This document shows, one piece after another, positions 33,965 to 60,796 of a stretch of 64,000 nt of DNA (its first letter is position 1; every line of letters begins with the position of its first letter). The DNA comes from Proteromonas lacertae (lineage: Eukaryota). The translations under genes were made by a program, and so were the position numbers. The DNA lies in assembly GCA_002245135.1 (NCBI GenBank), contig NGBS01001180.1, positions 1 to 64,000 of the forward strand. The letters are read 5' to 3'. The notes beneath the pieces are model-generated. The model worked only from the letters and a program-made list of their open reading frames with translations. It searched no databases and was not told where the DNA came from.

Positions 33965-34660
33965 GAATATCAACTCAAAGAAATATCCACAATAAATGAT
34001 GATCATTTGAAATTCTTAACATGTTGTGATTTGACTGAATCATTTATAAAATATGGAAATTTTGGTAATAAACTCAAGAATTCCGGATTAATAACTGAAA
34101 GATCAAAAAATATTATTGATAAACAAGCAACTGAAATAAGACATTTCTTATATAAATTCTTCTTCAAACCATCAAAATTTGTCGAAAATGAAATAATGAA
34201 AATAACAAATAAGTTTTCAAAGAATAAATTATTGATAGGATTTCATTTTAGAACAAATCACAAAGGATGGAATGATAGAGGAGTGGCATTTTTAAATAAT
34301 CAACAAATAGAAGAAGCAATTCAAAATGCCACAAAAATATCAAAGAAATTAAAAAATGTAGAATGGTATATTTCAAGTGATGATAATGAGATATTGATGA
34401 AATATAAATCAAAATATCCTGAATATGTTGTTAATGATATTCATGAGAAAGTTCATTCCAGAGGATCTGCTTCAAGAGTAACAGATGGATTTATATATTC
34501 TGTTGTTGAAGCTTATATATTATCAGAATGTAAAATATTGTTTTTAACATCATCTAGTTCATTTAGTGGAATTGCTTATTATAAATCTAAATTATCAATA
34601 TATGAATTTTTAGATAAGAAAGAAATTATTTGTAAAGAATGTAGAATTATATGGATGTGA
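33965..34660 (+). pseudogene. Fucosyltransferase-like (GT11/GT23/GT37 clan) C-terminal part, 5'-truncated
   Basis: IGFHFRT, WYISSDD and LTSSSSFS motifs of GT-B GDP-fucose-binding enzymes; no N-terminal GLGN motif or signal anchor. Confidence 0.7.
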
Positions 34661-35114
34661 TTAATGTTTATTATTTCATCATTCCAAAACAAATTTGTCC
34701 TTATAGAGTAGTGTGTGAAATATTTGAAAATAATAATAAAAATTCAATTAATTTGTTCAGTTACTACAAACAACATGAACATATCAACCTAAATATTGAT
34801 GTGAATCTAGAACCACAACAAATATAGCCTAGAAGCTATAGAATATCAGAAGGTCAAGATAGAGATTTTCAGTTTTGCTATGACATATTTCATAGGTCAT
34901 AATGCTAGTAGATAAAATTGATTTGCTTAAAAAATATAAATTTTGTATAGCAATAGAAAAATTATGATGAAGTATAAAGTTTCAATTAAAGATAATGGTA
35001 AAATATAAAGAGTGTGTATATTGGACAAAATCATATAGTAAAAAATAGTATAATTGATTAAAATTTGATAAAGATGATAATATAATTAAAATTAAAAATA
35101 AATTTGATTAAATC

Positions 35115-36150
35115 AATCTTCAGTCACATCAGAAGTTACTAATTATGAAGTTGTAGAATCATTACATCCACTTTATAGTGATTCTAATTATACAGGAAAA
35201 GTATATCTTCCAAATTGTAAATCAATGGTGATAATATTTGATGAAAAGAGTGATATTAGAAGTGGAAGTTTGAGTTTTTATTTAGATGAAAGATGTAACA
35301 ATACTTTTGAAAGATTTGATGAAAATAATAGTTTTAAATCTTTTGTAGTGGTAATAGTAGATGGGGTTATAGAATGTTTGTGATTGGATTGGGAGATTAT
35401 GAATTATTACCAGAAAAGAAAATAATATCAAATCCAAATCTGGAGTGGTCATTATGGTTATTGAATATTATATTACATCAATCAAATATAATAGATTCAT
35501 TAAACAAAGAAACAAAACAACAACTATTCAACACCTTAGTTAAACAATTTGTTAAGTCTATAAACAAAGAAAGAATAATAAATATATTAGTTTCATTATT
35601 CAGAGATGAAAGATTTAAAGATTTAGTAACACAATCAAAAGAAATAGATGATTTAGCATCACAATCAATTAATAACATTAACTATGGAAGAAAAAGAGAC
35701 AATATAGATTTATTCTTGATAGAATTGTATTGTGTGTCAAAATATCATTCAAATCCAATAAATATAGATGAATTAGAAAGTGATGAAATATCAATAGAGA
35801 AAATATCATCAGTCTATTCATTGTTATATGAAATGTCTATCAATCAATATATTCCTTTATTTAATCATTCAAATTAAATAAATGATTATACAAAAACATA
35901 TAAAGCATCTTCATATCCTCGTAATAACAAATATTTGAAATATGAATATGAATGTAATTGTTTTAATAACTTTAAAGTGATTATTCACAAAGATACAGAT
36001 GTTGGAAATGAAAAAATAAATATAATTTATAACAATGATACTAAGCAATTTTCAGGTAAATTTGATGATGATTTAGTTGTTGAGATTAATAATACAAACA
36101 GAATTAGTATTGAAACATGGTTGTTTAATAGAACTATCTTACCTTTATAA
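35115..36150 (+). pseudogene. Fragment of a large host gene with an ESxHP(Y)-type CUB-like module (as in some giant E3 ligases)
   Basis: VVESLHPLYSDSNYTGKVYLPNCKSMVIIFDEKSDI near 35150-35260, followed by broken ORFs 35374-35877 and 35935-36150. Confidence 0.4.
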
Positions 36151-36872
36151 GATATATTTTTTATAATTTCTTTTATTTTAGTAGAATTTGTAACAGAACT
36201 AACTACATTTATAACTTCTTATGACAATTTTAACATTTTAAATAGTCATTTTCAGTTGAAGGTAATATTAATGATATACAATCTTTTGTATTATAAGTAT
36301 TAGACTTTATATATATATGTATCATAATAATAAAAATAATTGAATGTAACATTAATTCATTAGTCATTTGAATTTTTAATATACTATTATTTTGTTTTTA
36401 TATAGCACTACATTATAGATATTATTTGACTATTCACGAAATAATTGATTAATGGTTGATATACTTTGTCTTTTATTCCTTATAAATTTATATTATTCTG
36501 TGTAACAAAAAGAAACAATTCAAAAGTTTTATTAAACAAAAATTAATTGCAAAGATTAAGATAATATTTCATTCCATACTCAGCAGACACACTTTTTCAA
36601 ATAAGATTATTAGTTACATCGCAATATGCGATAAGAATATTTTGGAAAGATTTTAAAAATTAATGATTGTATATACAGAAGTTATTACAATAGCAGACAC
36701 ATAATTAATAGTGATATTTACTTCCAATTGCAAAATTGATAAAAAGGATAGTTATGTTTGGTTTACAAGAGTTAAGCAACTTGATATTTCATCTTCTTGT
36801 AAATATTTAAAATATGAAAATAGTATATCAAAAGAATTATTACATGCACAATAATTATTTTATTATTGTTGA

Positions 36873-38708
36873 TTATACTTTCACATATGACAATTTTTCA
36901 TTTATGGAATGTGAAAACTTTTTATATAATGAATCATATTGTATGTAGCAATAAGAGATATTATCAATCTTAGTAATATAAATGTTTTTGTCTAAAAACA
37001 TTAGTTGTTTATATAGATTTTGTTTAAGTATATTTACAATACAATTAGTCAAATGATGAGAATCAGAATATATTCTATATCCATCTTTAAACATATAACA
37101 TTTATTGTTTGAACAATAATGAGATGTAAGATTTATATACGCTATATTATTTACATTAATAATTGGTTGTATATCTGTTGTGCAATTTATATTTATTATA
37201 CAAAATAAGTTTGCATTGTTTTCATTTGTTGTATAATATATGTGAGGATTATAATTTAATGAAGGATTATCAACTATTATAATCACTTTTATTGAGATAT
37301 TAGCTAGATAATAATTAAATAATATGTAATTCTTTAGAAAAACAATATTCCTATATTTGGGGTTTGAATAAAAAGATTCATAAGTATAATATGGATTTCC
37401 TAATATACTTACAACTCTTTTCATTATCAAATAGTTGTCATTTAAAAAATAATTAATCCAAAATATAATAAATACAACAAACAAACCTGTAGATTTATAT
37501 ATAGGTAACAATATTTCATTCCACTGTCTCAAATGTGAATCTCCTACCAAAAGAATATACGTTCTATCCATTCTTTGTATTTTATGTTTAGTATTAATAA
37601 ATATACATTCTGAAATGAATTTATCATCTGCTGGAAAAGCATTAGTACAGTTAACGGAATTATAATTTTTCTTTTGAAAATATTTAATAGATTTATATTG
37701 AAGAAATGTAATAAAAATAATACTCAATAAGCTAAAGGAAAATGTTTTATACAAAGATATCTTTAAATTCACAAAATTATCTTCAATTAAATAAAAGCAG
37801 GAAATACTCATTATTATTACAATGCATAGAGTAACTTGTGGGTATTTACTAATTATTGGATAATGTATTATATAAAATGAATAAGATATAGACCCTAGAT
37901 ATTGGAATAATCTTACTGAAAATAACGAATAACTCTTAGGATCTTGATATAACATTAAGAAAGAGGTTGCTAAAGGAAAAATCATTCTGTAGTTAGGATA
38001 ATTACCAAGTGAACATATATAACTACTTATAATCCACATCATGATTATAAAAAAATCATATAAAAAATGACGCTCTACTATATTTATTTTATGTGCTATA
38101 GTTAAATATGATCCAAATACTAATTCACAAAATCTAACTTCAAATGAATAATATGAATAACTTATTCTTTTATGGCTTATTAACAAAGAAAACATGAAAG
38201 CGATAATGAACAGCATAAGTAGAGAATAATTTAAATATTTATTAAATAATAATCTAATCACAATTGGCCATATTAAATAAAACTGATTCTCAATAGATAA
38301 GGACCAATAATGTAATAAAGGAGTAGAATTAAGCGAAATTGATTGTTCTAAATAATTAACTGATATGTAATAATAGTAATAATTAGCATATGAATACAAA
38401 CAAGATAATATTTCTTTTGCTCTTTTATAAGAAATATATGGATTTGATATAGATATAATATATATTAAAAACAACATTAAGTTTGACATAGGTTGTAAAC
38501 GAAGTATTCTGCCTCGATAGAATAGTGCATAATACTTTCTTTCTTTCATTTTTCTTATTAAACTTCCTGTTATAAAATATCCTGATAAAGTAAAGAATAT
38601 ATCAACACCTATAAATCCTCCTTTAAAATATTTATTCTTTTTATGAAAATAGAAAACAAAAAGCATAGCAAAAAATCTAACACACTGTAAATCATTTCTA
38701 AAATTCAT
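36873..38708 (-). CDS. OafA/OatA-type O-acyltransferase (acyltransferase-3 membrane domain plus SGNH domain)
   Basis: FRNDLQCVR...FH, GGFIGVDIFFTLSGY, PLLHYWSLSIENQFY, LGSISYSFYIIHYP, LVGDSH, YSDSHHLT. Confidence 0.92.
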   Translation of the reverse strand: MNFRNDLQCVRFFAMLFVFYFHKKNKYFKGGFIGVDIFFTLSGYFITGSLIRKMKERKYYALFYRGRILRLQPMSNLMLFLIYIISISNPYISYKRAKEILSCLYSYANYYYYYISVNYLEQSISLNSTPLLHYWSLSIENQFYLIWPIVIRLLFNKYLNYSLLMLFIIAFMFSLLISHKRISYSYYSFEVRFCELVFGSYLTIAHKINIVERHFLYDFFIIMMWIISSYICSLGNYPNYRMIFPLATSFLMLYQDPKSYSLFSVRLFQYLGSISYSFYIIHYPIISKYPQVTLCIVIIMSISCFYLIEDNFVNLKISLYKTFSFSLLSIIFITFLQYKSIKYFQKKNYNSVNCTNAFPADDKFISECIFINTKHKIQRMDRTYILLVGDSHLRQWNEILLPIYKSTGLFVVFIIFWINYFLNDNYLIMKRVVSILGNPYYTYESFYSNPKYRNIVFLKNYILFNYYLANISIKVIIIVDNPSLNYNPHIYYTTNENNANLFCIININCTTDIQPIINVNNIAYINLTSHYCSNNKCYMFKDGYRIYSDSHHLTNCIVNILKQNLYKQLMFLDKNIYITKIDNISYCYIQYDSLYKKFSHSINEKLSYVKV

Positions 38709-40397: not shown

Positions 40398-41485
40398 CAG
40401 GGTTGTATTTATCGGTTACCGACGGAGATAGGTCAAAACCTATAGGTTTTGCCTTGACTGTCAGTCGGTCAAGCCTTACAAGCCGTATATTATAAAATCT
40501 ATTTTAATTCATTATATACTAATTTTCCCTTCATAAAAACTATCTTATAATATATTTTAATACTTGATTCATATATTTTCAATTCAATTAAATAATTTTT
40601 AACTTTTTATAAAGAATTACAATTTAATACTCAATAATAATTAGGTATTTTATATAAATATGTTCTTATTTATTTCTACTAATCATCAGTTTCATTTGTA
40701 ATCTATCACATGATAAATTTGATTTGGATAAGTTACTTATTGGTCCACCTTCTCGGAAAATATTCTTTCTATCTCTGAAGATGTTGCTAGACTGTTTAAA
40801 TTGTTCTTGGCAAGTATGTATACCCTAGGAAACTTGGACTTTAATGATAGCCAGATATTTCTAATGGTTTCAGAGGTGCTGTAATGAATATCATATTGCA
40901 AATATTCTTGTACTTCATTTGGCATAATTAATCTCTTTCTTTTTACTGCAAATGCATTTATCAAGGCTTTTTATCTTTAACATATTATACCATAAGGTTT
41001 TGTATAAGTTAAAATTAAGATGTTCAAGCATATTTGCCTCTTTTAAGGCAATAACTTCACGAGCCGCTCCAATTGGTAAAACTATACTCCTAGAATATAT
41101 AATGATAGATTATATTAGATACATTTATGATAATTTTAAGAAATGATTAATGTCAAGCTAAAAGTTTGCCATTTTTTCTTTCAAATTTTTATAATCATTC
41201 TATACTTTATATTACATATATAACACAATAGAATAACTCATTGGTAAGGTTAGATTCAATTATGAAGAAAGAAAAAAGCGCATCAACCGACGGTTAATTC
41301 GGTATTTTATAGAATGATATATAGAGCTTGAATTCAATATGCACAGTTAGATAATATTATTAATATCACATGTTTAGGAGGAGGTCAGCTAATAGTTACT
41401 ACAGCCTGGTGTCGGTCAACATTTATTTATTGACCTACGACCGATCGGTTTTCTCCGTCGGTCATGACCGATTTATACAACCCTG
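40398..41485 (-). mobile_element. Internally deleted hAT DNA transposon
   Basis: Inverted termini CAGGGTTGTAT..ATCGGT..ACCGACGGAGA at both ends; internal hAT dimerisation-domain remnant. No matching 8-bp TSD. Confidence 0.85.
40737..40964 (-). pseudogene. hAT transposase C-terminal dimerisation domain remnant
   Basis: EVQEYL...WLSLKSKFPRVYILAKNNLNSLATSSEIERIFS. Confidence 0.88.
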
Positions 41486-41849: not shown

Positions 41850-43580
41850 TTAAAAATATAATTGTAAAATGCATCCTTTGTATGGATATTTCCAAGCTCT
41901 TAGTATCTTATTTTTATATAGTACATATTCACATTCTAATCTTGCAGACAAATTATTATTATTATTTATGATAAACGGCTTAATCATCTCAATTGTATAA
42001 TTAAATATACTCTTATAAAAGTTAAATGTGAAATGATGTTCATCAGCATATATGCAATATCCCTTATAGTTAAGATTACATGAATTATTAGTGCAAAATA
42101 GATGTGTAAGATCCACAGATATAATTCCATAAATATTATGATTATTATTATGTGAAAATATAGTAATATCAACTCCTTTTTTAGCTATATATCTCTTTTG
42201 CTTCTTGCATGATAATCTTTGTTTCAACACTGGAGTAGGTATGAAGTAAAATATATAATCTGCTTTTGATTTAAGGTATCTTAAATATGAATCTATTTTC
42301 AATGGATATTTTTTTATATATTCTTCATGTAAATTGTCATAAAACAAATTCATATTAATAATAAAATGAAATTTGTCTGAAATATCATATATATTAGAAT
42401 TGTTTCTTACTATGAACTCAGTATGAATATATTTATAATATATAGTGTAGTTATTATTATGTAGTATATTATAATAGTTACCTAGTAAATTAAAAGCATG
42501 CGAATCTCCTACAACTAATACTGACTTGTAAATGAAGTTTTTATTATTTATATAGCAACAATAACTATCTCTGATAATTTTTTCAATAACATTCAATTTA
42601 CCTGAAATATTACCATTATTATTATTATATCTCATTACAATTACGCAGAACAACACACTATATAGTTCAACTAATAGAAATGTTAAATGTATAATTTTAT
42701 GTTTCAATACACTTGTTATTGGATTTTTTCCATACATAAAATACAAAGCAATAGATATAACACCAACTCTAAAAGTTAATAATATATCAAATGATTCTAA
42801 TTTAATTATTGGATAATGTACCAGATATATATAAAAAGAAATCTGACCAATTATTTCAATCGGAGTAAATTTAATGTTTATTAAACATGATAAGTATATA
42901 AATGTTGAAATTGATATTACAATATGATATAATCTTTCATCAATATATTTTTTTGAATAAATAAAAATACTTGTTAAAAATAATGAGGATATAAATTTCA
43001 ACATAATATTATTATTCTTAATTGTTTTGATTCTTGGAATTAAATATTCCCAAATTCTTGTAACAAACGAAAAATAATTATAGGATGTATATATATTAAA
43101 TGTAATGATGTATATGAGTAAAGAAAATGATGATAAGACTAAATTCATTACTTTTGAATTCTTTACATTAAATGAATTGATAGAATGAAGCTGAAAATCA
43201 ACAGAAATATACCAGTGATGAAGAAAGAGTGAATGTTCAGGAGGATTAAAATAATCAGCAGCGTGATAAATAAAATGATAATTTGAATATAAGAAAGAAG
43301 TTGATAATATTTCGTTGTATAGTTGATCATATTGTTGTTCATATATATCTTTTCTATATAGCAGAATTACTACAAACATTTCTGTAAAACAAGGAAATAT
43401 TAATCTTACATATCTTTTTAATAAGTTAATCCATATTATGTTAGAATTAGATAAATATCCTGAAATTGTAAGAAATATTTTTACAGCTATATAGCCATAT
43501 TTTAAAATATTACAATGATATAAAACAATAATTATTATAGAATAACCTCGAAGTATTTGAATATCATTTCTATAATTCAT
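41850..43580 (-). CDS. OafA/OatA-type O-acyltransferase plus SGNH, paralog 2
   Basis: YRNDIQILRG...YH, FLTISGYL, FLHHWYISVDFQ, IGQISFYIYLVHYP, VVGDSHA, YADEHHFT; likely start ATG 43580. Confidence 0.88.
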   Translation of the reverse strand: MNYRNDIQILRGYSIIIIVLYHCNILKYGYIAVKIFLTISGYLSNSNIIWINLLKRYVRLIFPCFTEMFVVILLYRKDIYEQQYDQLYNEILSTSFLYSNYHFIYHAADYFNPPEHSLFLHHWYISVDFQLHSINSFNVKNSKVMNLVLSSFSLLIYIITFNIYTSYNYFSFVTRIWEYLIPRIKTIKNNNIMLKFISSLFLTSIFIYSKKYIDERLYHIVISISTFIYLSCLINIKFTPIEIIGQISFYIYLVHYPIIKLESFDILLTFRVGVISIALYFMYGKNPITSVLKHKIIHLTFLLVELYSVLFCVIVMRYNNNNGNISGKLNVIEKIIRDSYCCYINNKNFIYKSVLVVGDSHAFNLLGNYYNILHNNNYTIYYKYIHTEFIVRNNSNIYDISDKFHFIINMNLFYDNLHEEYIKKYPLKIDSYLRYLKSKADYIFYFIPTPVLKQRLSCKKQKRYIAKKGVDITIFSHNNNHNIYGIISVDLTHLFCTNNSCNLNYKGYCIYADEHHFTFNFYKSIFNYTIEMIKPFIINNNNNLSARLECEYVLYKNKILRAWKYPYKGCILQLYF

Positions 43581-44070
43581 ATTAACAAACTTAAATAACA
43601 CTATTACCACATGTTAAGTTATAATATCTTTACTTATTTAAATAAATATTACTAAATTATACTCAGGAGTTTTCTAAAAATTTCACTAAAACAATATATT
43701 TAAGGACGATAGGCGATTAACTTAACAAACTTAATATATAGTTTATAAATAGGACAATGGCTACATGTCACGCAGTTCTTACGAGTGTTCCTAGGTCTTT
43801 CCCCTTCTAGATCAAGAGTTGACTTCTACAGGAGCTTCATACATTGCATCGATAAGCTCAACTTCACTTGTGAAGACTTCGAAAGTTATAGGAAAGTAAT
43901 AACCTAAGCAAGGTGAACCACCTTCAGAACTACCCGATGATGACGCAAATGGTTCACTTTTCTTCATCACCCATAGGAATATTTTACTTATATTATAACT
44001 AAGTATATTAGTAATAATAAATTAATGAAAATTTATGTAATTATAATTAAAAATTAGGCAGTTTATACTA

Positions 44071-44178
44071 ATGAAGAAATATTACTTTATTATTTCTTTT
44101 ATCATATTATTTTTAATTCTATATATATCATTAAATATAAAAGTAAAGAATAAAACTATTATATTAAATGTAGTTTTT
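44071..44178 (+). pseudogene. Inverted, near-identical 5' fragment of the GT gene starting at 46701
   Basis: About 108 nt matching the reverse complement of ~46594-46701 with only a few substitutions. Confidence 0.88.
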
Positions 44179-44271
44179 AAGGGTCTTCTAATTGAAATCT
44201 AAATATTTTAATCATCTTAGCTAATGTATTTTAGTCTCTAGTAGTGAATGAAACTTATCAAAATAGTGTGT

Positions 44272-44690: not shown

Positions 44691-45554
44691 ATGAAATCAA
44701 GTATTTTCTTTTTAGTATTATTTTTATTCTTTTCATTTTCGTTAATCAAAGTTATATCTAATAAAAAATCGTTAGCCATAATAGATAAAGTAAATTCCAT
44801 AATTCCTCCTTTTATAATAAATGATCAATATTTTTACTTTGTAAGAACAAAATACAGAAACATTTCATTCAATCAATATATTAGAAGCAATGATATAATA
44901 TCAAATTACATTAAAATAAATGGTAGATGGGATGAATGCCAAAAAATCTTTGATATATGGAATTCCAGCAAAGAAAAGGGTATTTTTCTTGATTTGGGTG
45001 CTAATATTGGTTCATGTTCTTTTCTTTTTGCAGAAATTGGAGTAAAGGTTATTGCTTTCGAGCCTTTATCTAACAATTTATTTCCTTTTAGTGTGACAAC
45101 TTTTTGTAATTCATATTATAAAAACTATATTACAATATATCCATATGCATTAGGAAAAGAAGAAAAAGAACAATTAATATATATATTAAAGAATAATTGG
45201 GGAGCTTCATCGATGTACTATAAATTTACTGATTATAATCAAACTATAACTGTAAAGACACTAGATAACTTTAAAGATATTATTCCAAATAATATTTCGA
45301 TGATAAAAATTGATGTTGAAGGTGGAGAATATGATCTTTTACTTGGAGGAACTAATTTCTTTAAATCTCATCATACAGAGTTTATGTATATAGAGGCTTC
45401 ATGCGGTATAGTGAATGAAAATGGTAAATATGAAATTGAAAAGCTATACAAACTTATATCAGATTTAGGTTATGATATAGATAAAAAAATTAATTGTAGT
45501 AAAAGAAAAGTAGGTAATATTGTTGTTAAGTCAAAGTTACTAAGAAATAAATAA
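44691..45554 (+). CDS. FkbM-family (Methyltransf_21) SAM-dependent methyltransferase with signal anchor
   Basis: FLDLGANIG, AFEPL, PYALG, IKIDVEGGE; hydrophobic N-terminus. Confidence 0.92.
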   Translation: MKSSIFFLVLFLFFSFSLIKVISNKKSLAIIDKVNSIIPPFIINDQYFYFVRTKYRNISFNQYIRSNDIISNYIKINGRWDECQKIFDIWNSSKEKGIFLDLGANIGSCSFLFAEIGVKVIAFEPLSNNLFPFSVTTFCNSYYKNYITIYPYALGKEEKEQLIYILKNNWGASSMYYKFTDYNQTITVKTLDNFKDIIPNNISMIKIDVEGGEYDLLLGGTNFFKSHHTEFMYIEASCGIVNENGKYEIEKLYKLISDLGYDIDKKINCSKRKVGNIVVKSKLLRNK

Positions 45555-46701: not shown

Positions 46702-46727
46702 TAATTTTAAAATAATTACGTTGGACG

Positions 46728-49271: not shown

Positions 49272-49291
49272 TATTATATTTTAATATTTCA

Positions 49292-50173
49292 TTGTTTTAT
49301 TTAATATTTATATGTATAGTTGTTAAATTTAAAGTAATAAAATATAAGAATAAAGTTGGATGCAACAAATATTCTAAAAGGGATATATCTAGTTATATTA
49401 TACATAGTCCACTGTATTTTAAAAGGATAAAGAATATTAATCTAACATCATTTGTCAAATTCATGATCATAACACCTATATGCTCTTCAAATAGTATAAG
49501 AAGAAGAATAATTAGACAAACATGGGTTAAAAATATTTTAAGATTAAATTGTAGAATTATGTTTGTCATGGGATTAAGTGATATAAAAGGAGAGGATAAA
49601 AGTAAAGAAAATGATATACTTCAATTCTCATTTATAGATAACTATTTTAATTTGACATTATCAACTATATTAAGCTACTTATGGACAAAAGATGTATATA
49701 AATATTTTGATTATCTCTTAAGAGTAGATAGTGATGTTTTCCCAAATTTGCAATTAATAAATCTCTATATATGTTTAAATAAGAAAAGAACAAATATAAT
49801 ATATGGTTATTATTATCCACCAATGAAATGCAAAAGAAATATAAGTGATAGCAATTATATTCCTTATTCACTATATTCACATTACATACTTCCTGAATTT
49901 GTTGCTGGTAATTTCTATATTTTTCCTAAATTATTAGACTGGTTAAATTTCATAAATACAATAGATATACACAGTAAAAACTTAATATACAGAGAAGATA
50001 TACAAATGGGATTGTATTTTTATAAATATAACATATCAATTATTAAACTCAATAAATATTATAATAGAAAAGATATATTTATAACTTGTAAAGATTATCA
50101 ACTTCATTTAGCTGTTCATGGTGTAACTGAATATAATATGATATTCATTGACAAGATTTGTAATAAAATTTGA
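49292..50173 (+). CDS. GT31 beta-1,3-galactosyltransferase-like protein
   Basis: RRRIIRQTW, FVMG, DILQFSFIDNYFNLTL, LRVDSDVF, REDIQMG; the start codon is uncertain. Confidence 0.85.
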   Translation: MFYLIFICIVVKFKVIKYKNKVGCNKYSKRDISSYIIHSPLYFKRIKNINLTSFVKFMIITPICSSNSIRRRIIRQTWVKNILRLNCRIMFVMGLSDIKGEDKSKENDILQFSFIDNYFNLTLSTILSYLWTKDVYKYFDYLLRVDSDVFPNLQLINLYICLNKKRTNIIYGYYYPPMKCKRNISDSNYIPYSLYSHYILPEFVAGNFYIFPKLLDWLNFINTIDIHSKNLIYREDIQMGLYFYKYNISIIKLNKYYNRKDIFITCKDYQLHLAVHGVTEYNMIFIDKICNKI

Positions 50174-51166
50174 AAATGTAATTAATATTTTATACTGAAA
50201 ATACGACACATAATACAAACATGCTGTCATATGACTGTCATTAACAATAAAAGTTGTATTATATGAATGTAGTTTGTTTATAAATTTCTGTATATTAGGA
50301 AATTTATTGATTAATAAAGGTACATTGTAAGTTCTTCTTATTAAGTTTATAGCATATGACCTATTTTCGTGTATTATTTTTCCTCCTAAATGTAAAGGTT
50401 CATGTTTTGTTGGTTTTTCATTTCTATCTGAGCAAGCGCAATAATCTGGCTTAATTGGAGTTTTGCTTGATGGAAATTTCGGTTTTTTTGTGGATATATT
50501 ATAATATACTTTTAATACAACGCTTATCCAAAAATCTACTGAAGTTTGAATTGTTGGAGGAGGATATCTCCATAGATCTCTTATCCATTTCATTTTCCCT
50601 GCCCACATATGTCCTCCATAATCATATTCTATATCTTCTTCATATGTTACAGGTAAATTAATTTTCCATACACTTTCAGCAATTATTTCATGTGAATTAT
50701 GATCTATTAATCTTCCCATTCTAACTGCTAAAGATCCAGAATCAACTACTCTAAGCATATTTTCAAAATACTTATCTCCCCATAAAACATCATCATCACA
50801 TATTATAAAATATGAATTCTTAGTATTATAAGATATTATTGGTATAAGAAACCTTCCATAAAAACCTGTCGGAATAGAGGATTGAATATATGATACATCA
50901 AAATTGTGCATTTTTATCCATTTGTTTAGAATTAATGAAACGTTAATAAAAGAACCACTTTGAAATACTATAATATGAATAAAATACCAACTAAAAATTG
51001 ATTGTCTTACAATTAGGTTTAATTGTTTTATTATGCTATTTCTCTTAAACACTGATAAAATGATATATACATTTCTTTCAACTTGTAACTGTGATCTACT
51101 AAACAATGTATATAATAAATTTATAATCATAATAGAAAATAAAAGAAGAAATAATATTCTCATCAT
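50108..51166 (-). CDS. GT-A fold glycosyltransferase, paralog 2 of 45742-46701
   Basis: High similarity to paralog 1 (GSLAVRMGRL, GGHMWAG, PSSKTPIKPDYCACSD); SED is changed to SVD. Confidence 0.78.
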   Translation of the reverse strand: MMRILFLLLFSIMIINLLYTLFSRSQLQVERNVYIILSVFKRNSIIKQLNLIVRQSIFSWYFIHIIVFQSGSFINVSLILNKWIKMHNFDVSYIQSSIPTGFYGRFLIPIISYNTKNSYFIICDDDVLWGDKYFENMLRVVDSGSLAVRMGRLIDHNSHEIIAESVWKINLPVTYEEDIEYDYGGHMWAGKMKWIRDLWRYPPPTIQTSVDFWISVVLKVYYNISTKKPKFPSSKTPIKPDYCACSDRNEKPTKHEPLHLGGKIIHENRSYAINLIRRTYNVPLLINKFPNIQKFINKLHSYNTTFIVNDSHMTACLYYVSYFQYKILITFSNFITNLVNEYHIIFSYTMNS

Positions 51167-51770: not shown

Positions 51771-53525
51771 TTATCCACAATTAACAGAATTATTAATGTA
51801 ATGAAGATGAAATAATCTGTTATGTCTCCATAATGTTATGTCTTTTATTTTAAATATATGTTTATATTTATTCAGCACTTTATCTTTCATTAAATTTGTA
51901 AATTCGAAAGATAAGTGATTATTATCTACATACATTAATATATTAAATTCTAATAAACTGCATATCTTATTTGGGCATAAAATATCTGTAAAGGATAAAT
52001 ACTGTTCTTTTAAATATTGTTTAATTATAAGCAATTCATGATATATGCAATCTTGTGAATATAATTTAAACTTGTTATTATTAATAGTCTGTTTAATGCA
52101 GTTATGTGGATCAAATTTTAAAAATGGAACATCTTCTATAAAATATATTTCATTTGATATATTCTTCAATACTTTTATTGCTTGGACATATTTTATTTGC
52201 ATAATATTATGCTTATTACTTGATATACTATTTAAAAAATTTGACAAAAAAATAGATATTATTCTATATTTCTTTATGACTTTTAATGAAAATACGATTC
52301 TCTCATAAGTTAATCTATTAATGTCTATTACTTTTACCCATATAAATAATAAAGATGTTTTCTTTAATATTGACAATTTATAGAGTATTGGAGACCATAC
52401 TAGCAAATGCAAATCACCTATTAATAAAAACCATTCTCTATTAATAATATATGAAGAATCTGATTTTCTAATAGCATAACTTTCACATTCTTTTCTTATT
52501 ATTCCATAATTCGATGTAAAAAGAGGAGGTTTTGTAATTATTTTGTAGTTATATTTTGTGTAGCTAATTTTTAACAAATATAAGCCGAATAAAACAGAAA
52601 ATAATACAATACTATATTTGCGCTTATTAAAATGTCTTAATGGATGTTCAATAAGATAGAATGATATAATTGAGTATATAAATATAATAATTATATAAAT
52701 ACGAATGCTGTTTATTCTGTATATTACTAATATTATGTAATGCCATAAATATAGAGAATATGAAATTTCACCTGTAAATGAGAAAGGAAAAGATGCAATT
52801 ATATAATTTGCAGATAGTTTGTGATAATTAATATTTTGAATAAGAGGAATTAAAGAAATAAAAGGAAATAAAGGATAATAACTAGGATATATGTTGTTAT
52901 TGTTGTGAAATAGAAAGGCAAAAAGAAATAATATAAGCATACCTCCTATTGATAACTCATTAATATTATTATTTATACTCATATTCATCTGAGCAATAAA
53001 AACGCTAATTCCAAACAAAAACTCCCATAACCTTGCTTTAAAAATAAAATATGCTAAATGAATATACTTATTAGAAATTACAATGGAATATATTAAACCA
53101 ATAACTAACAATAAATATATCAAAAAATCTTTACTAAACAATAGTATTGGAAATATTACATAAAATTGCTCTTCTATCGATAATGACCAAAAATGTAGTA
53201 TAACTGATTGAGGTTGTGATTCATACATATAATCTATGTTTTTATTATAAAAACGAATATTAGATATTCCAAATATAGCATATCTAATATCAGTCTGTAT
53301 ATCAATTGGATTATATTGTTTTAATTTCTTAATATTTATTATTACATAAAATAAAACTATATAACTAATAGGTATAATCCTCTTTATTCTATTTGAAAAG
53401 AAATCTACTATTAACATTGTTTTTGATGAATTTTTGTCATTATAAACCATTTTCATTATATACCCTGATACATAAAAGAAAATATCAACACCAATTAAAC
53501 CATCAATATCTCTTCTAAATTTCAT
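51771..53525 (-). CDS. OafA-type acyltransferase plus SGNH, paralog 3, probably inactive
   Basis: FRRDIDGL fused directly to IGVDIFF (first TM helix deleted); LHFWSLSIEEQFY; GDS changed to GDL; YVDNNHLS. Confidence 0.82.
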   Translation of the reverse strand: MKFRRDIDGLIGVDIFFYVSGYIMKMVYNDKNSSKTMLIVDFFSNRIKRIIPISYIVLFYVIINIKKLKQYNPIDIQTDIRYAIFGISNIRFYNKNIDYMYESQPQSVILHFWSLSIEEQFYVIFPILLFSKDFLIYLLLVIGLIYSIVISNKYIHLAYFIFKARLWEFLFGISVFIAQMNMSINNNINELSIGGMLILFLFAFLFHNNNNIYPSYYPLFPFISLIPLIQNINYHKLSANYIIASFPFSFTGEISYSLYLWHYIILVIYRINSIRIYIIIIFIYSIISFYLIEHPLRHFNKRKYSIVLFSVLFGLYLLKISYTKYNYKIITKPPLFTSNYGIIRKECESYAIRKSDSSYIINREWFLLIGDLHLLVWSPILYKLSILKKTSLLFIWVKVIDINRLTYERIVFSLKVIKKYRIISIFLSNFLNSISSNKHNIMQIKYVQAIKVLKNISNEIYFIEDVPFLKFDPHNCIKQTINNNKFKLYSQDCIYHELLIIKQYLKEQYLSFTDILCPNKICSLLEFNILMYVDNNHLSFEFTNLMKDKVLNKYKHIFKIKDITLWRHNRLFHLHYINNSVNCG

Positions 53526-53652: not shown

Positions 53653-53823
53653 TGTTGTGCGCCGTTTGTCATAGTTGGCCGTTTGTCTACCAGACACTTT
53701 TAATACAAACTAAATGTATATTCTTGCTTGTCTTGATGAAAAATTGTTACTTTTATACTTACTTTGTTATATGACCTTACCTCTGCAGTATATTTTTTTG
53801 ATAATATAAATAGTTTGAATATT
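53653..53823 (+). repeat. LTR-like dispersed repeat
   Basis: About 170 nt nearly identical to 60952-61121; begins TGTTG and contains TATAAATAG. Confidence 0.88.
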
Positions 53824-54574: not shown

Positions 54575-56190
54575 TGTTTAAACTAAAAGAATGAAATTGT
54601 ACTTTTTATTCTTTTATAATAGTAAATTGCTCATCTTGATTTAACAAACTCAACTTTCTTTATATTATTTTATTTATACTTACACAACTAAACGAGATAC
54701 AGTAAATTACCTTTTAAACTTATAATTATTGTCTTTGTTTGCTCATAAGAATTACATACATTCGCACATAGCTGATTTTATTTTGTATTTATTACAATTA
54801 TTATTTATTGGAATTTCACTAAATAATGAATTATTTAATGATTTCTATATAATAAATTTATCAAATATACCATATTGCTTGAAATTGATTTGAGCGTATT
54901 ATAAACCTCATAATTTGTTACAAATCTATTTTGATTAGTATGTAATGATTCACATAATCTTTTATGATCTTTACACAATTTTTGGGGTACAATTACATTT
55001 AGAAAAGGAAGTGATCTGTCAATATATCCAAACTATAATATAATAAATAAAAAAGTACTTCTGTTCTAAAATATTTGCCATAATTTATTCCATGATCCCC
55101 TAACATTATTAATATTGTATTCTTTAAAATTCTTTTGTTGTTTAAATATTTCAAATGATCAGAAAAATCTTTATCTACTCTTAAGAGAGATATTTGTTTA
55201 TCTTCATGTGGCTCCATGAAAGATATGTAAGATATGTATGGATTTGATTTATTATTATAATATGTTACTGATTCTGTTAGATAATCTAGATACAATTGAT
55301 GGTATTGTTTATTACCTAAACATCTTGGTTTACTACCATATAAAAATTTCCATTCAAATTCGCAACCTAATATAATATTATGATTAGATCCATTATATGA
55401 TGTATTGCCATACATGTTTGTATGATTATGACAATCTTGAAGTAAAGCAATCGAAATATATCCTTTCTCCTCGAAATCTTTAAATATAATTTTGTGTTTA
55501 TCTTTAATATCATTAGTTCCGTAGAATAAAGGTAAATAATTGTGGTGTGATCTAGGTCCAACTGAATGATATCTAAGCATTTCATAAATATTATTTTCTT
55601 TTCTTACATTCTTTAAAGTATTTATTGTTTGAGCCATTTGTTTCCTAAATACATATCTAGATGCTGCATCAAATAAATATAGTATTACGGAATAACTTTC
55701 TTCTCTTTTTATATTATTAGCAATAGGAATAAAGTGTAGAAAATAGAAATTAATTCTATTTGACTTTATTCTCCTATATTCAATCACTTCTGTCTCAAGG
55801 AATATATCATGATTTTTCTGTTTAATTATTATTTTATAAATATACTTGTATTTTTATTATTTTATCAATAAAGCCTTTAGGTTTGTTATAATTAATAAAA
55901 AATAAATATCCATTATCAGAAAAGTTTATAAAATTACCTTTTATACTGTAATTAACATTTAATGAAGAGCAACATGTTCCATACGTTTTATTTGGTATTT
56001 CTATAAGTGACTTTTTGTAACAAGGTAATTCACATAAATTCTTTTCACTAATGTATTTAGTATATCCCAACATACTTGTACAGAAACTATTCTTTTTAAA
56101 GAATGAAATTCTTTTATTATAAAATTGAAAATTCTTATATAATATTATCATAAATAATACTAAAGAAGAGGAAATAAATATTAAATTCAT
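54575..56190 (-). CDS. DUF229-like (alkaline phosphatase/sulfatase superfamily) type II membrane protein, intron-containing
   Basis: Signal-anchor exon 55834-56190; VILYLFDAASRYVFRKQMAQT, MEPHE, LGDHG; the 3' end is approximate. Confidence 0.75.
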
Positions 56191-56505: not shown

Positions 56506-57252
56506 ATGAAGATAATAGTAATATATATGATTTTTGTTTCATTTACATTATTCTTTGATTTTATACATTTTAGTAATACTAATTTATATAAAAATTGCGG
56601 AAATATTGCTCATGGATGCGGATTAATTGAGTCACATAAATACACTAACTGTCTAGAAGCATTTAAAAATTCCTACCTTAGAGGATTTAGATTAATTGAA
56701 ATAGATATATTTGTTACAAATAACAAGCATATTGTTGGAGGCCATGATTTATGTATGTATAAGAATTATACAAATTATAATAACAGCAATGTTTTCAACT
56801 TTAATTATATAATACACTCTAAAATCCTAAATAAATATCATCCTATTTATGATTATATGATTTATAGTCTATTATCTGAATATAAAGACATTATTATTGT
56901 GACAGATAAAATTACAAACTATATATTACTAAAGAAATATAGTATATTAATTGATAGATTATATGTTGAAGTACCATCTTATTACTACTTCTTTTTGTCC
57001 AGAAATAAAGGATTTAAAAATACTTTGTTAAGCATAAAAACATTGCATGATTTGGATAATTTTATTTCTTTCATATTAAAAAATATGACTATCTTTGGAA
57101 TAGTAATTCCGTCAAATATATTCTATTCATATCGCAATAAGTTATATTTACTATTTAAACAAAATATACATATATATGTTACTGGTATAAAGAATAAATC
57201 TATAATTGAAAATGCTCTTTGTAAATATGTGTCAGGTTTCTATATTGACTAA
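56506..57252 (+). CDS. Glycerophosphodiester phosphodiesterase (GDPD)-like protein with signal peptide
   Basis: IAHGCG, YTNCLEAF, GFRLIEID, GGHD, IVTDK. Confidence 0.85.
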   Translation: MKIIVIYMIFVSFTLFFDFIHFSNTNLYKNCGNIAHGCGLIESHKYTNCLEAFKNSYLRGFRLIEIDIFVTNNKHIVGGHDLCMYKNYTNYNNSNVFNFNYIIHSKILNKYHPIYDYMIYSLLSEYKDIIIVTDKITNYILLKKYSILIDRLYVEVPSYYYFFLSRNKGFKNTLLSIKTLHDLDNFISFILKNMTIFGIVIPSNIFYSYRNKLYLLFKQNIHIYVTGIKNKSIIENALCKYVSGFYID

Positions 57253-57264
57253 CATTTCACTGTA

Positions 57265-58320
57265 TTAGTAATAATTTTTATGATTATAATTATATCCAAC
57301 AAAATTTATATTCTCATTTTTACACTTACAAAAATATGAACCAAATAATGAAAATGTACTACCTCTAGTCAATAAAAGTGAGTCAGCATTTTTCATCATC
57401 ATAATATCTTCTAAGGATTGATTTAAGCACTTAGAGTTTCTACTATGGCATGGTAATGAATAGTCCGTGTAAATGTTATTAATTATCTCTGTTTTTATTA
57501 GCTTTTTAATTGAGTTAGAATCTGAAAGAAGTATAATTTTGTATATACTTTTTGAGGCTAATAATTGCATAACTGATCTTATAATTGTTATATTAAGATA
57601 GTTTTTCAATGGGTTATTATCAGCATCACCAACTCTTAAATGTACTGCCATGTATTTTTCATCCACTAATATATTGAACCTATATTTAAACCTGTCACGT
57701 ATAATATGATTGTATGTTGACGATGGTTTAAAATATACATTACAAATCTTTCTATTGATTTCTCTTATATTAATTACTATATCAGAATAAATCGTATCTA
57801 AAAATCCTTTATCTATTATTAATTTATTGTACTTTTTATATAGTAGAATTTGTTCAGTAGAATACCAATGTTTATTTGCTCCAATGATTTTATATTTAGA
57901 CTTTAGTGCCATAACACCATGTGAAAAATAAGTTACATTGGTGAAGTTAACTGCAAAAAACCCTATAGGTATATCAAAATATCCCCATAATTTTTTATAA
58001 GTTACTAAAGATAATATATATAAAATATACTGAATAATGATCTTCCTGATAATAATGAAACAAATATAGAACTAATTATTTGAAGCATTGAATTACCTAA
58101 TCCCTATAAATATATTAGATTACTTTACTCCTAAATGAACTTTATCGTAAAATGCTAAGCCTTTTTTGGATTTATAGTAAACTTGTGTTAAGTATGATTG
58201 ATATTTAACATAATATTTAATTTTGGAATTAGAGTATTTTGTAGTGGGTATAAAACTATTTAAAGCATAGAGTAATATTAGTAATAAATATGTTAAACAA
58301 AAGAAAAACTTATATATGTG
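57265..58320 (-). CDS. Fucosyltransferase-like (GT11/GT23/GT37 clan), intron-containing
   Basis: Upstream mini-exon GLGNSMLQIISS (~58030-58105) between short GT-AG introns; MAVHLRVGD, LLSDS, TRGSTFS; the start is approximate. Confidence 0.75.
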
Positions 58321-59660: not shown

Positions 59661-59683
59661 ATGGTGAAAGTGATATTGATACA

Positions 59684-60043
59684 ATGATTCAAGAAATCAA
59701 AGAAACAGTTCCATTGTTTAATACGTATGGAGATTGGAATTGTATAAAGGTTAAACAAGGAAGAAGAAAAGCTAGAAAAACAAGAAGAACTAGAAGACAT
59801 AGATTTACTAGTGATGGTAGATTAATTAGATCAGCAGGTTTATGTAGCTGGTTAAAAAAAGGAATAACAAAAGTTAAAGATTTTGTGACTTCTGACAAAT
59901 TTAAAAATGGTATTGAAAAAACAAAAGAGATTAATAGCACATTGAGAGAGAAGAAGTGTATAAGCAATATAGCAAGAAAAGCTCGTAATGTTGCTAATAC
60001 ATTAGGTTTTGATAAAGTTGCTGAGTTATTATTATTAATTTAA
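59684..60043 (+). pseudogene. Basic, amphipathic virus-like (core or membrane-active) protein fragment
   Basis: RRKARKTRRTRRHR followed by AGLCSWLKKGITKVKDFV amphipathic helix. Confidence 0.4.
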
Positions 60044-60268
60044 GTAAGAAAGTAAAATGGCTATCTGAGTTAAAATTTTGTCTTTATTCCATTTATATAT
60101 TGCATATTTTATATATCTTGATAGAGATGAAGGACCTCCTCTTCCTTTACTTGGAAATACGACATATAAATATATTTTATTTCTCTTTCTTTTATATAAA
60201 ATATATAGCATGAGAGATATAAACAGAAATTTAATTAAATTCCAACTTCTATTATAAATATCTTTCAT
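60035..60268 (-). pseudogene. 5' fragment of a type II membrane glycosyltransferase-like gene
   Basis: Signal anchor followed by GRGGP motif, then truncation. Confidence 0.4.
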
Positions 60269-60331
60269 TTATTAATACTAAAATGATTTAATGTTTTAAT
60301 TAGAAAATGGAAATCATGTAAATTATTCATA

Positions 60332-60796
60332 ATGGTAAATCCATTGTCGAAACAGAATTTCTATGATGATGAAGCAAATGTTGATGATTCTCAACAAAAT
60401 CATTCTTTTCAAAATGCAATAGAGGTAGTTAAAAAATATTCAAAGAATGTAAAATTTGTAATTCTCAAAACTACTAGTGAAAAAGCAGTAATTTACTTAA
60501 ACAATCAGCAATGCGATTTCATTTATTTAGATGGAAGACATGATTATAATAGTGTAAAGAATGATATAAAATATTACTATCCTTTAGTTAGACCATGTGG
60601 AGTATTAGCAGGACATGATTATCAAGATGAAAATGGAAATGAGTGGAAAATGGATAAATATGGCAATGTTAATAATAATAATAAAACAGTAAAAGCAGCA
60701 GTTGATGATTTTGCATCTGATAATAAATTAAATATAATTACAACAAATGAAAGGAATTACAAAATGTGGATGATTAGAAAACCTATATATATTTAA
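60332..60796 (+). pseudogene. Methyltransf_24-type SAM methyltransferase, C-terminal part
   Basis: DFIYLDGRHDYNSVKNDI...LVRPCGVLAGHDY; the N-terminal SAM-binding motif I is missing. Confidence 0.8.

Follow-up and report, generated by a model that had tools for sequence, protein, structure and literature searches.

A cluster of glycan-enzyme genes of eukaryotic character occupies positions 33,965–60,796 (∼27 kb) of the window, the whole stretch of 64,000 nucleotides that was analysed. It comprises 14 glycan-enzyme genes or gene remnants belonging to eight unrelated families: three FUT8/NodZ-like genes, one GT31 and two GT64-like GT-A glycosyltransferase genes, three OafA-type AT3-SGNH genes, an FkbM methyltransferase, a CmcI-like methyltransferase, a DUF229 protein and a GDPD (Table 1). 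These account for 14 of the ∼19 units of the island; about ten members look intact, whereas three of the 14 are degenerate (FUT_A and the CmcI-like gene are truncated at the N-terminus and AT3_C is catalytically degenerate). Among 21 ORF translations from the island, eight exceeded the curated Pfam cut-off for a glycan-related family, as opposed to none of the 19 ORFs scanned upstream. A post hoc unit count, confined to the window, gave 0/15 upstream versus 14/19 in the island (Fisher p = 1e-5). Therefore, the claim of the first-pass annotation that glycan genes dominate this region is confirmed by Pfam, profile and structural evidence, and its family assignments were upheld. Since eight unrelated families are involved, simple tandem duplication is ruled out, and the alternating gene strands show that there is no operon. 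The low GC content noted previously was also recovered, with 21–26% in 2-kb bins at 34–58 kb compared to 27–29% at 14–32 kb. We conclude that the cluster is real and functionally coherent.

Table 1. Features of the island and its surroundings (positions in the window).
Feature	Position	Strand	Basis
Two paralogous giant predicted surface proteins	19070-23803; 23924-28805	+	N-/C-termini, modules
FUT_A, FUT8/NodZ-like (GT23-like) remnant, C-terminal half only	33965..34660	+	Pfam FUT8_N_cat
AT3_A, OafA-type AT3-SGNH O-acyltransferase, 611 aa, apparently intact	36873..38708	-	Pfam
hAT transposase dimerisation-domain remnant	40740..40970	-	Dimer_Tnp_hAT E 1.6e-4, 21.8 bits vs 21.4
AT3_B, AT3-SGNH O-acyltransferase, 576 aa, catalytic residues kept	41850..43580	-	Pfam
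GTA_A 5' end, inverted 116-nt copy	44062..44177	+	96% identity with 46595-46710
FkbM-family (RfbT-like) methyltransferase, N-terminal hydrophobic anchor	44691..45554	+	Pfam
GTA_A, GT64-like GT-A, type II anchor	45742..46740	-	AF2 model + Foldseek
AT3_A-derived fragment	47087..47159	+	inverted 63 nt, 89% with 38404-38466
FUT_B, FUT8/NodZ-like, anchor and GLGN motif	48257..49271	+	blastp, family profile
GT31 (Galactosyl_T) glycosyltransferase, start provisional	49268..50173	+	Pfam Galactosyl_T 3.9e-19
GTA_B, GTA_A paralogue	50108..51166	-	62-69% aa identity to GTA_A
AT3_C, AT3-SGNH paralogue, open frame, catalytically degenerate	51771..53525	-	Pfam
Interspersed ∼170-nt repeat	53655..53823; 60954-61121; 44255-44397 (inverted)	.	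92-97% identity
DUF229 (alkaline-phosphatase superfamily), anchor, C-terminal end provisional	54755..56190	-	Pfam DUF229
GDPD-family phosphodiesterase, N-terminal anchor	56506..57252	+	homologue profile
FUT_C, FUT8/NodZ-like, GLGN motif, start provisional	57265..58320	-	blastp, Atlas clusters
Methyltransf_24/CmcI-like methyltransferase, C-terminal part only	60332..60796	+	Pfam

The match of FUT_A to FUT8_N_cat (E = 2.6e-7; 30.3 bits against a cut-off of 27.6) is confined to profile positions 333–477 of 499, and neither an ORF nor a GLGN motif for the N-terminal part was found in the 256 bp back to the stop codon of the preceding gene. FUT_B and FUT_C have no Pfam match of their own; blastp relates the paralogues, which are mutually 21–27% identical, with three pairwise values of 1e-4 (FUT_B–FUT_A), 1e-5 and 2e-9 (FUT_B–FUT_C). 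When a profile of the three genes was used, FUT8 chains were the only significant matches (eight chains, E = 1.6e-5 to 0.0086), the sole other match being to an RNA methyltransferase (E = 0.25), and the nearest Atlas clusters of FUT_C carry FUT8_N_cat or NodZ. The aligned genes share GLGN, R-x-G-[DN] and STFS, which we take to be fucosyltransferase motifs (HxRxxD-type, S-x-FS), and the catalytic-region sequence of FUT8/NodZ, diagnostic of a GT23-like fucosyltransferase, is present. An AlphaFold (AF2) model of FUT_B exon 2 reached a pLDDT of only 44.7.

In the GT31 gene the Galactosyl_T domain is accompanied by a DxD motif (DSD in the translation); its first ATG lies at 49463, downstream of a hydrophobic segment, and its 3' end overlaps that of GTA_B. 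The AlphaFold model of GTA_A (45745–46740; pLDDT 91.4) matched GT-A enzymes, with EXTL2/GT64 first in the Foldseek search and KfiA, heparosan synthase and ppGalNAc-T also retrieved; the DDD motif (D136–D138) is invariant. In the Pfam scan of the island ORFs both GT-A genes matched GT2 below threshold (19.5 and 21.9 bits; cut-off 23.3), and neither matched Glyco_transf_64. Judging by the modelled fold, the pair is predicted to represent GT-A HexNAc-type transferases that are GT64-like and at most candidate members of GT64. Comparison of GTA_A and GTA_B over 320 codons (dN/dS 0.29, dS ∼0.95) indicates that the pair is under purifying selection.

All three AT3 genes encode a fusion of the AT3 and SGNH domains above both Pfam cut-offs (AT3_A: Acyl_transf_3 9.4e-19, SGNH 3e-7; AT3_B: 2.9e-8 and 3.1e-7; AT3_C: 2.1e-16 and 1.4e-7) and are mutually 24–29% identical. 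The full set of TM1 Arg/His, RxxR and the SGNH triad is found in AT3_A and AT3_B and not in AT3_C. AT3_A possesses every motif (TM1 Arg/His, GG-F-x-GVD, RxxR, GDSH, DSHH). AT3_B keeps the TM1 His, GDSH and DEHH, with GVD replaced by AVK; AT3_C is missing 22 aligned residues, including the TM1 His, and has lost the SGNH Ser (GDS to GDL). Equivalents of R14, H25, S412 and H590, residues essential in OafA (PMC7448272), are kept in AT3_A and AT3_B. In the AT3 tree the three island genes and eight AT-rich proteins form one clade (SH-aLRT 100) apart from the other 62 sequences; the named homologues of AT3_A outside this clade are bacterial OafA/YrhL proteins (roughly 22–30% identity).

The FkbM gene matches Methyltransf_21 over its full length (7.5e-16, positions 1–172 of 173) as well as V_cholerae_RfbT (2.4e-7), and its anchor has a Kyte-Doolittle value of 2.51. 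The CmcI-like gene aligns to positions 41–105 of 105 of the Methyltransf_24 profile (1.7e-10), and no exon with the SAM motif was found in roughly 0.4 kb upstream. The DUF229 gene, whose ORF at 55002–55853 exceeds the Pfam cut-off, contains three introns (55818–55845, 28 nt; 55033–55058, 26 nt; 54845–54870, 26 nt) separating exons that are collinear on the Pfam profile (103–351, 354–402 and 425–451). The GDPD-like protein alone gave a Pfam E value of 0.049 and no hit at E≤0.001. Its homologues number 1181; when 40 chosen ones were aligned with it, PF03009 was present in 39 of these 41 sequences. The resulting profile matched solved GDPDs (1.2e-11) and the catalytic H36, E65, D67 and H80, hallmarks of GDPDs, are invariant in the alignment.

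The island genes bear the signs of host nuclear genes. Six GT-AG introns of 25–28 nt are spread over DUF229, FUT_B (48468–48492, 25 nt; splicing joins two frames, ...QSKPF to LLNWKEF...) and FUT_C (58104–58128, 25 nt; 58005–58030, 26 nt), and they resemble in kind those of NAT10 nearby, which measure 25 and 39 nt. Values of GC3 are 0.14–0.20 in the island genes versus 0.13–0.21 in NAT10, surface, coiled-coil and other genes. Thus, introns and GC3 show that these are host genes and not recent imports; together with the N-terminal anchors they substantiate the eukaryotic nature assigned to the region beforehand. GC1 and GC2 fall below the values of core genes, which suggests weaker constraint. 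A tree of NAT10 tentatively places the organism among the stramenopiles near Blastocystis. Type II-like anchors, likewise reported earlier for most of the genes, were recovered as a hydrophobic 19-mer (Kyte-Doolittle mean of at least 1.9) at eight of the ten N-termini examined, the exceptions being the truncated FUT_A and the CmcI-like gene. In a genome of 25% GC, composition alone can also yield hydrophobic N-termini.

Traces of turnover are scattered over the island. In addition to the truncated genes and the dead AT3 paralogue, they include the GTA_A fragment (tblastn, 94% over 36 aa), the AT3_A-derived fragment (75% over 24 aa), the hAT remnant and the ∼170-nt repeat, all three copies of which lie in the second half of the window; a remnant of a C48 (Ulp1) protease gene was detected in the window by Pfam. 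The first-pass annotation had described the region as rapidly turning over: turnover is evident, whereas 'rapidly' holds only in a relative sense, because the paralogues are old, as judged from the identities within the AT3 and FUT groups and from the dS of the GT-A pair.

It had also been proposed that the island is located near genes for large surface proteins. Two giant predicted surface proteins are indeed encoded at 19–29 kb, near the island and outside the island proper, whereas the gene directly adjoining it (29210–33709) codes for a coiled-coil protein and not for a surface protein. Each giant protein starts with a signal-peptide-like segment, contains seven W-x4-C modules and ends in a hydrophobic tail; no Pfam family was found in either, and the second gene is predicted to contain a 70-nt intron (25632–25701). 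These proteins may be substrates of the island enzymes, and the cluster may constitute the 'surface-glycan diversification system' suggested for it.

We consider it reasonably probable that the island enzymes act together in the ER/Golgi lumen on one or a few surface glycoconjugates. Sugars would be added by the type II-anchored GT-A pair, GT31 and the FUT8/NodZ-like enzymes, and O-methylation would fall to the FkbM/RfbT-like enzyme. Acetyl groups from cytosolic acetyl-CoA would be carried across the membrane by the OafA-type AT3-SGNH proteins for lumenal O-acetylation of the glycan; substituents linked through phosphodiesters would be attached, trimmed or remodelled by GDPD and DUF229. The surface epitope would then vary as genes in the island are duplicated, lost or fragmented, in parallel to bacterial serotype-converting genes and the glycan-rich outlier chromosome of Mamiellales. 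Because the island lacks genes for a transporter and for the synthesis of sugar nucleotides, it is not a self-contained pathway. Another explanation, which seems possible though doubtful, is that the island is a by-product of a repeat-rich region prone to duplication and decay (subtelomere-like or accessory), which has gathered dispensable secretory genes with unrelated substrates and no common pathway or co-regulation. The three degenerate members and the transposable-element remnants fit such a region as well as they fit a diversifying system, and the gene fragments, the repeat, the C48 remnant, the mixed orientation and the reduced GC1 and GC2 point the same way. GT31, FUT8-like and AT3 families are each used on many different substrates, which also agrees with it. 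Against mere decay speak the concentration of eight unrelated families of glycan and phosphodiester chemistry in 14 units as opposed to none in the 19 ORFs scanned upstream, the purifying selection on the GT-A pair, the catalytic residues kept in most members and the presence of relatives of one of the families in glycan clusters elsewhere (PMC5082852).

It appears improbable that the block began as a large DNA virus or Polinton-like element which integrated together with glycosylation genes of its own and then became domesticated. Giant viruses commonly carry FkbM, GT-A and AT3 genes, and the window does contain a fragment of a protein-primed PolB (1.2e-11), the Ulp1/C48 fragment and a Pox_A32-like ATPase just below the cut-off (22.0 versus 22.8 bits); moreover, two of the Atlas clusters nearest to FUT_C are 83% and 50% viral, the third being 75% eukaryotic. 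However, these viral-type genes lie more than 26 kb away or outside the island, ORF scans revealed no viral hallmark gene within 34–61 kb, and the six introns are of host type, with GC3 identical to that of host genes. Scans of viral contigs for GT-A, FkbM and AT3_A, made with single proteins and reaching close relatives only, gave no relative. Still less credible is the view that a bacterial polysaccharide locus reached this place by recent transfer or through chimeric assembly. Besides the bacterial affinity of the AT3_A homologues, this view can draw on the typically bacterial distribution of the FkbM/RfbT, CmcI-like and GDPD families, but it is largely refuted by the spliceosomal introns and is further opposed by the eukaryote-style anchors, the host GC3, the eukaryote-type families GT31 and DUF229, the fully supported AT-rich clade of the AT3 genes and the missing export and precursor genes described below. 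Returning to joint action of the enzymes in the secretory pathway, a bolder version, speculative and in our view rather unlikely, would cast the island as the locus at which a protist related to Blastocystis varies its surface epitopes, the eukaryotic counterpart of bacterial serotype conversion: OafA and RfbT-like enzymes, anciently of bacterial type and now intron-bearing and Golgi-anchored, would redecorate the glycans of the giant proteins, and gain, loss or inactivation of island genes would alter the antigenic or receptor surface presented to host immunity, viruses or predators.

The resemblance that had been claimed between the island and a bacterial surface-polysaccharide locus is partial. 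As in bacterial O-antigen and capsule loci, glycosyltransferases are grouped with O-acetyl and O-methyl modifiers, including FkbM/RfbT and AT3-SGNH enzymes with the same essential residues (PMC7448272). The likeness does not extend further, for genes for NDP-sugar synthesis, an initiating transferase, Wzx/Wzy or an ABC exporter were absent from the 64 ORF translations scanned, and the island differs from bacterial loci in its introns, N-terminal anchors, eukaryote-type GT31 and DUF229 and lack of an operon. Serotype-converting examples are the OafA/OafB and Oac acetyltransferases (PMC7448272) and, going by the Pfam name, Vibrio cholerae RfbT.

Among known systems, the nearest parallel is the small outlier chromosome (SOC) of Mamiellales, e.g. 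chromosome 19 of Ostreococcus tauri. It is the best-studied glycan cluster of eukaryotes and is tied to virus resistance; the likeness of the island to it lies in gene content and composition. SOC are of lowered GC content, and the island shows the same combination of local glycosyltransferase and methyltransferase enrichment, GC below that of the flanks and repeats or transposon remnants. Glycosyltransferases, an FkbM methyltransferase, surface proteins and transposons are combined on the SOC (PMC5082852). The island has in common with it the enrichment of a eukaryotic region in glycosyltransferases and methyltransferases, the vicinity of surface-protein genes, and both transposon remnants and duplicated sequences. 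The GT-A family of the island also occurs there as an epimerase fusion. On the other hand, Mamiellales are green algae, whereas the NAT10 tree points to a stramenopile; SOC are whole chromosomes of 102–290 kb compared to 27 kb; and the island has three OafA-type O-acetyltransferases, GDPD and DUF229 while lacking an epimerase/dehydratase, a sugar transporter and other sugar-nucleotide genes. An independent island of this kind in a distant AT-rich protist lineage, the second after the SOC, would suggest that gathering the modifiers of surface glycans into a single plastic region is a recurrent strategy of eukaryotes.

In eukaryotes, it is uncommon for functionally related genes that are not homologous to be clustered. 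Outside bacteria, such grouping of glycan genes is seen in the glycosylation clusters of giant viruses, from which the island differs by its host introns and lack of viral hallmark genes, and in the fungal galactosaminogalactan cluster, with which we know of no enzyme family in common. Distinctive here is the mix of three OafA-type O-acetyltransferases, FkbM methyltransferase, GDPD and DUF229, so the island supplies, among its anchored products, candidates for the O-acetyl- and O-methyltransferases of eukaryotic glycans, enzymes that, to our knowledge, are poorly identified beyond plants and mammals. It also provides an uncharacterised GT-A domain in standalone form; in many protists this domain is fused to UDP-GlcNAc 2-epimerase, as are the GTA_A homologues found elsewhere. 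The same GT64-like domain (36–50% identity) occurs in epimerase–GT-A fusions on AT-rich gene-sized metagenome contigs and marine algal contigs, whereas in the island it stands behind a membrane anchor and is duplicated. Among the 59 AT-rich contigs, 41 consist of one gene only and bear CCCCAAT-type repeats at one end or both, so they show no clustering. For a 20-kb metagenome contig (L058, 47% GC) carrying a GT-A relative, 11 ORFs of at least 150 aa were listed; seven of these were scanned, and all seven were glycan-related.

Genes for glycan-active enzymes form a cluster in this part of the Proteromonas lacertae contig, as the first-pass annotation had proposed. Between positions 33,965 and 60,796, 14 of 19 units are glycan-enzyme genes or their remnants, versus 0 of 15 units in the comparison set (Fisher p = 1e-5, with a post hoc unit count and within the window), and no glycan-related ORF turned up among the 19 scanned upstream. 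Since eight unrelated families are represented, tandem duplication does not explain the cluster.

All of the families originally named were recovered by Pfam, profile and fold searches or alignments. Pfam was run on 21 ORF translations from the island, eight of which gave a match above the cut-off (see table). The paralogous GT64-like genes GTA_A and GTA_B, 62–69% identical, yielded a GT2 score below the cut-off. A homologue search retrieved 35 matches, many with UDP-GlcNAc 2-epimerase (PF02350) as a fusion partner. An AlphaFold model (pLDDT 91.4), for which the two window proteins were aligned with 28 of the 35 matches, retrieved EXTL2 (GT64) as the best Foldseek hit in the PDB, followed by KfiA, heparosan synthase and ppGalNAc-transferases. 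The predicted fold places the pair among GT-A enzymes, and D136–D138 are invariant in the alignment. In a tree of all 35 matches, the pair and three close relatives formed their own clade (SH-aLRT 99), sister to an AT-rich group of epimerase fusions. Two of the three FUT8/NodZ-like genes, FUT_B and FUT_C, lacked a Pfam match; once spliced, both contain the GLGN motif and can be aligned with FUT_A (blastp, 1e-4 for FUT_A/FUT_B, 1e-5 for FUT_A/FUT_C and 2e-9 for FUT_B/FUT_C). A profile of the three was significant only to FUT8 structures (eight chains, E 1.6e-5 to 0.0086; sole other row 0.25), and the Atlas neighbours of FUT_C bear FUT8_N_cat or NodZ. A model of FUT_B exon 2 from the three-sequence alignment was unusable (pLDDT 44.7). 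The GDPD-like gene has a weak Pfam match of its own (E 0.049) and 1181 homologues; when it was aligned with 40 of these, picked from 150 listed, PF03009 was present in 39 of the 41 members, H36, E65, D67 and H80 were invariant, and the profile matched solved GDPDs at 1.2e-11.

Features of the island and its surroundings (strand in brackets where assigned)
Feature	Position	Details
Polinton/Maverick-type remnants	3458-4243 (+); 6395-7414 (+); 62229-62555 (-)	
NAT10	~14.0-17.4 kb (-)	RNA cytidine acetyltransferase
NAT10 introns, GT-AG	17229-17253; 17098-17136	25 nt; 39 nt
NAT10 third intron	16497-16694 (-)	198 nt; starts ATATCTTTT, ends AC; TTCTTTAAT branch-like box
Giant-protein genes	19070-23803 (+); 23924-28805 (+)	~1,600 aa each
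Inferred intron, second giant-protein gene	25632-25701	70 nt
Coiled-coil protein gene	29210-33709	abuts island
FUT8_N_cat (FUT_A)	33965-34657	Pfam above cut-off
Three successive ORFs	35108-36150 (+)	different frames
Acyl_transf_3 + SGNH (three AT3 genes)	36876-38708; 41853-43580; 51774-53525	Pfam above cut-off
hAT dimerisation-domain remnant	40740-40970	
GTA_A 5'-end inverted copy	44062-44177	116 nt, 96% identical
FkbM	44691-45551	Pfam above cut-off; V. cholerae RfbT match
GT-A pair	45745-46740; 50111-51166	
AT3_A fragment	~47.1 kb	63 nt
FUT_B	48257-49271	
FUT_B intron	48468-48492	25 nt, GT..AG
GT..AG stretch	~49264-49319	56 nt
Galactosyl_T/GT31	49268-50170	Pfam above cut-off
GT31/GTA_B 3' overlap	50108-50173	~65 nt, opposite strands
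DUF229	55002-55853	Pfam above cut-off
DUF229 introns	55818-55845; 55033-55058; 54845-54870	28 nt; 26 nt; 26 nt
FUT_C	57265-58320	
FUT_C introns	58104-58128; 58005-58030	25 nt; 26 nt
Non-glycan ORFs	58953-60043 (+)	30% GC
Methyltransf_24 (CmcI-like)	60332-60793	Pfam above cut-off; weak CmcI match
~170-nt repeat	second half of window	three copies, 92-97%

Judged from sequence, the island genes belong to the host. Short introns interrupt FUT_B, FUT_C and the DUF229 gene; the joins in the two FUT genes bring back the conserved motif order, and those in DUF229 are validated by the collinearity of its exons along the Pfam profile (103–351, 354–402 and 425–451). GC3 is 0.14–0.20 in the island genes and equals that of NAT10, of the large genes nearby and of one further upstream ORF (0.13–0.21); the island genes fall below these at the first two codon positions alone (GC1 and GC2). 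A hydrophobic N-terminal stretch is present in eight of the ten proteins examined (FkbM, both GT-A, FUT_B, FUT_C, DUF229, GDPD and the GT31 ORF). ATG-bearing first exons were sought for FUT_C and GT31 and not found. Splicing of a 56-nt stretch would join FUT_B in frame to GT31, possibly giving a bifunctional protein, and would delete the hydrophobic segment of GT31, ahead of which there is otherwise no ATG. GT31 and GTA_B run into each other at their 3' ends.

The state of the genes varies within the island. AT3_A and AT3_B, two of the three OafA-type acyltransferase genes, retain the Arg and His of TM1 together with the GDS and DxxH motifs of the SGNH domain. The corresponding OafA residues, R14, H25, S412 and H590, have been shown to be essential (PMC7448272). 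The third, AT3_C, has an open frame of 584 codons and is probably inactive, given that 22 aligned residues including the His are missing and GDL replaces GDS. FUT_A is devoid of its N-terminal half and the CmcI-like gene of its SAM-binding N-terminal part, an exon for which was sought within ~0.4 kb upstream and not found. For the GT-A pair, a dN/dS of 0.29 (dS 0.95, 320 codons) indicates that selection has retained both copies. The AT3 paralogues are old, being mutually 24–29% identical. In a tree of these three genes and the best 70 of 120 listed matches (583 matches at E≤0.001), they grouped with eight AT-rich proteins in one clade (SH-aLRT 100), separate from 62 mostly bacterial-type sequences; compositional attraction may have produced this clade. 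The gene copies and fragments, the hAT remnant and the repeat are read as signs of turnover.

We lean, with modest confidence, towards an island of secretory-pathway genes in which the encoded enzymes would work together to make and decorate surface glycoconjugates, some members being in decay. The main rival, a decay-prone accessory region whose genes share no common pathway, is a possible but rather unlikely reading. Introns and codon composition argue against foreign sources: a viral origin is improbable, no relatives having been found in three scans of viral_contigs with the GT-A alignment, FkbM and AT3_A, and a recent bacterial origin is scarcely credible.

The first-pass annotation had further compared the region to a bacterial surface-polysaccharide locus and taken it to be turning over rapidly. 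The host-gene cluster and the signs of turnover stand, whereas the bacterial likeness is partial: AT3-SGNH, FkbM/RfbT, CmcI-like and GDPD modifying families are common to both, but strands alternate in the island, unlike in bacterial loci, and no sugar-nucleotide, initiating, flippase/polymerase or exporter families were found in the 64 ORF translations scanned. Eukaryotic glycan-gene islands are already known, and the present island is a variant of that kind. We take its nearest analogue to be the small outlier chromosome of Mamiellales, which carries genes for glycosyltransferases, for methyltransferases (FkbM among them) and for surface proteins along with transposons and foreign-looking genes, and is tied to virus resistance (PMC5082852). 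An epimerase–GT64-like fusion is present in Ostreococcus, and the GT-A pair of the window is of the same family. Among the papers listed in literature searches, none gives an account of such an island outside Mamiellales, which is not proof of absence; glycosyltransferase clusters are unmentioned in the portion of PMC10690189 available.

Relatives of the GT-A genes are encoded at 78 metagenome loci, 59 AT-rich and 19 at 44–50% GC. The AT-rich loci have a median length of 2786 bp and bear CCCCAAT/GGGGATT repeats at at least one end in 41 of 59 cases, at both ends in 12; epimerase–GT-A fusions lie on AT-rich contigs of ~2.3–2.9 kb (L001–L053 and others). The repeat-ended contigs look like single-gene telomere-capped chromosomes, which we take to be the ciliate kind of single-gene linear molecule. 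A ciliate source for the window, raised by these relatives, is not supported, since the long ORFs of the window are open in the standard code, a search of the window for CCCCAAT repeats found none, and the GT-A clade of the window is distinct from the group on these contigs. Among the 19 other loci, L058:1-20263 (47% GC) is a polysaccharide-locus-like cluster, probably from a marine alga: 11 ORFs of 150 aa or more are listed, and the seven that were scanned all proved glycan-related (DegT+GNAT, GT61, a TPT-like transporter, an epimerase–GT-A fusion, a eukaryote-type nucleotide-sugar transporter, a dehydratase/epimerase and a UDP-sugar dehydrogenase).

Placement of the organism relied on NAT10, the exon borders of which were set by eye against the conserved protein. 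Its product is ~50% identical to homologues across all eukaryote groups and 84–91% identical solely to fragments; an Atlas search gave no taxonomic resolution. Close relatives are represented by short contigs, on which identity reaches 69–74% for GT-A and 48–55% for AT3_A. A tree of the window protein and 40 hand-chosen sequences of 120 listed matches (31 named and 9 unnamed; 80 left out) united it with Blastocystis within a stramenopile clade (SH-aLRT 98). Kinship to Blastocystis is tentative, as it derives from one gene and alveolates and cnidarians are absent from the listed matches, and it agrees with the tiny introns: in human-associated Blastocystis every intron measures exactly 30 bp, and the GC content of tortoise isolates is 21–23% (PMC10690189). 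The window has 25% GC throughout. Comparable intron sizes are known in myxobolids and Dicyema (PMC13644364, in part), so intron size by itself is not decisive; a myxobolid or dicyemid source, raised by the ~25-nt introns, is less likely given the NAT10 tree. The third NAT10 intron is of the U12-like AT-AC type and lies beside the 25- and 39-nt GT-AG introns, so that minor-spliceosome introns appear to have been kept despite ultra-short ones.

A tRNA scan and an Rfam search of the window detected neither a tRNA nor an Rfam family. Upstream of the coiled-coil gene lie two paralogous genes for giant proteins, each with a signal-peptide-like N-terminus, seven modules ending in W-x4-C ~180–200 aa apart (counted as 7 in one gene and as 2+5 in its paralogue) and a hydrophobic, GPI-like tail at the C-terminus; Pfam assigned them no family, and they are plausibly surface proteins. 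The Polinton/Maverick-type remnants comprise a packaging ATPase resembling Pox_A32 (22.0 bits, marginally short of the cut-off), a protein-primed family-B DNA polymerase of which the C-terminal third is left (E 1.2e-11), and a fragment of a Ulp1/C48 protease (E 6.4e-5). Pfam assigned no family to the intervening ORFs. Within the island, the three successive ORFs that follow FUT_A have just sub-threshold matches to Rif1_N and PSD13_N and may represent a non-glycan multi-exon gene or pseudogene. The slightly GC-richer segment between FUT_C and the CmcI-like remnant contains non-glycan ORFs, one of which weakly matches a HYDIN/VesB-like Ig domain (E 8.7e-4, below the cut-off).
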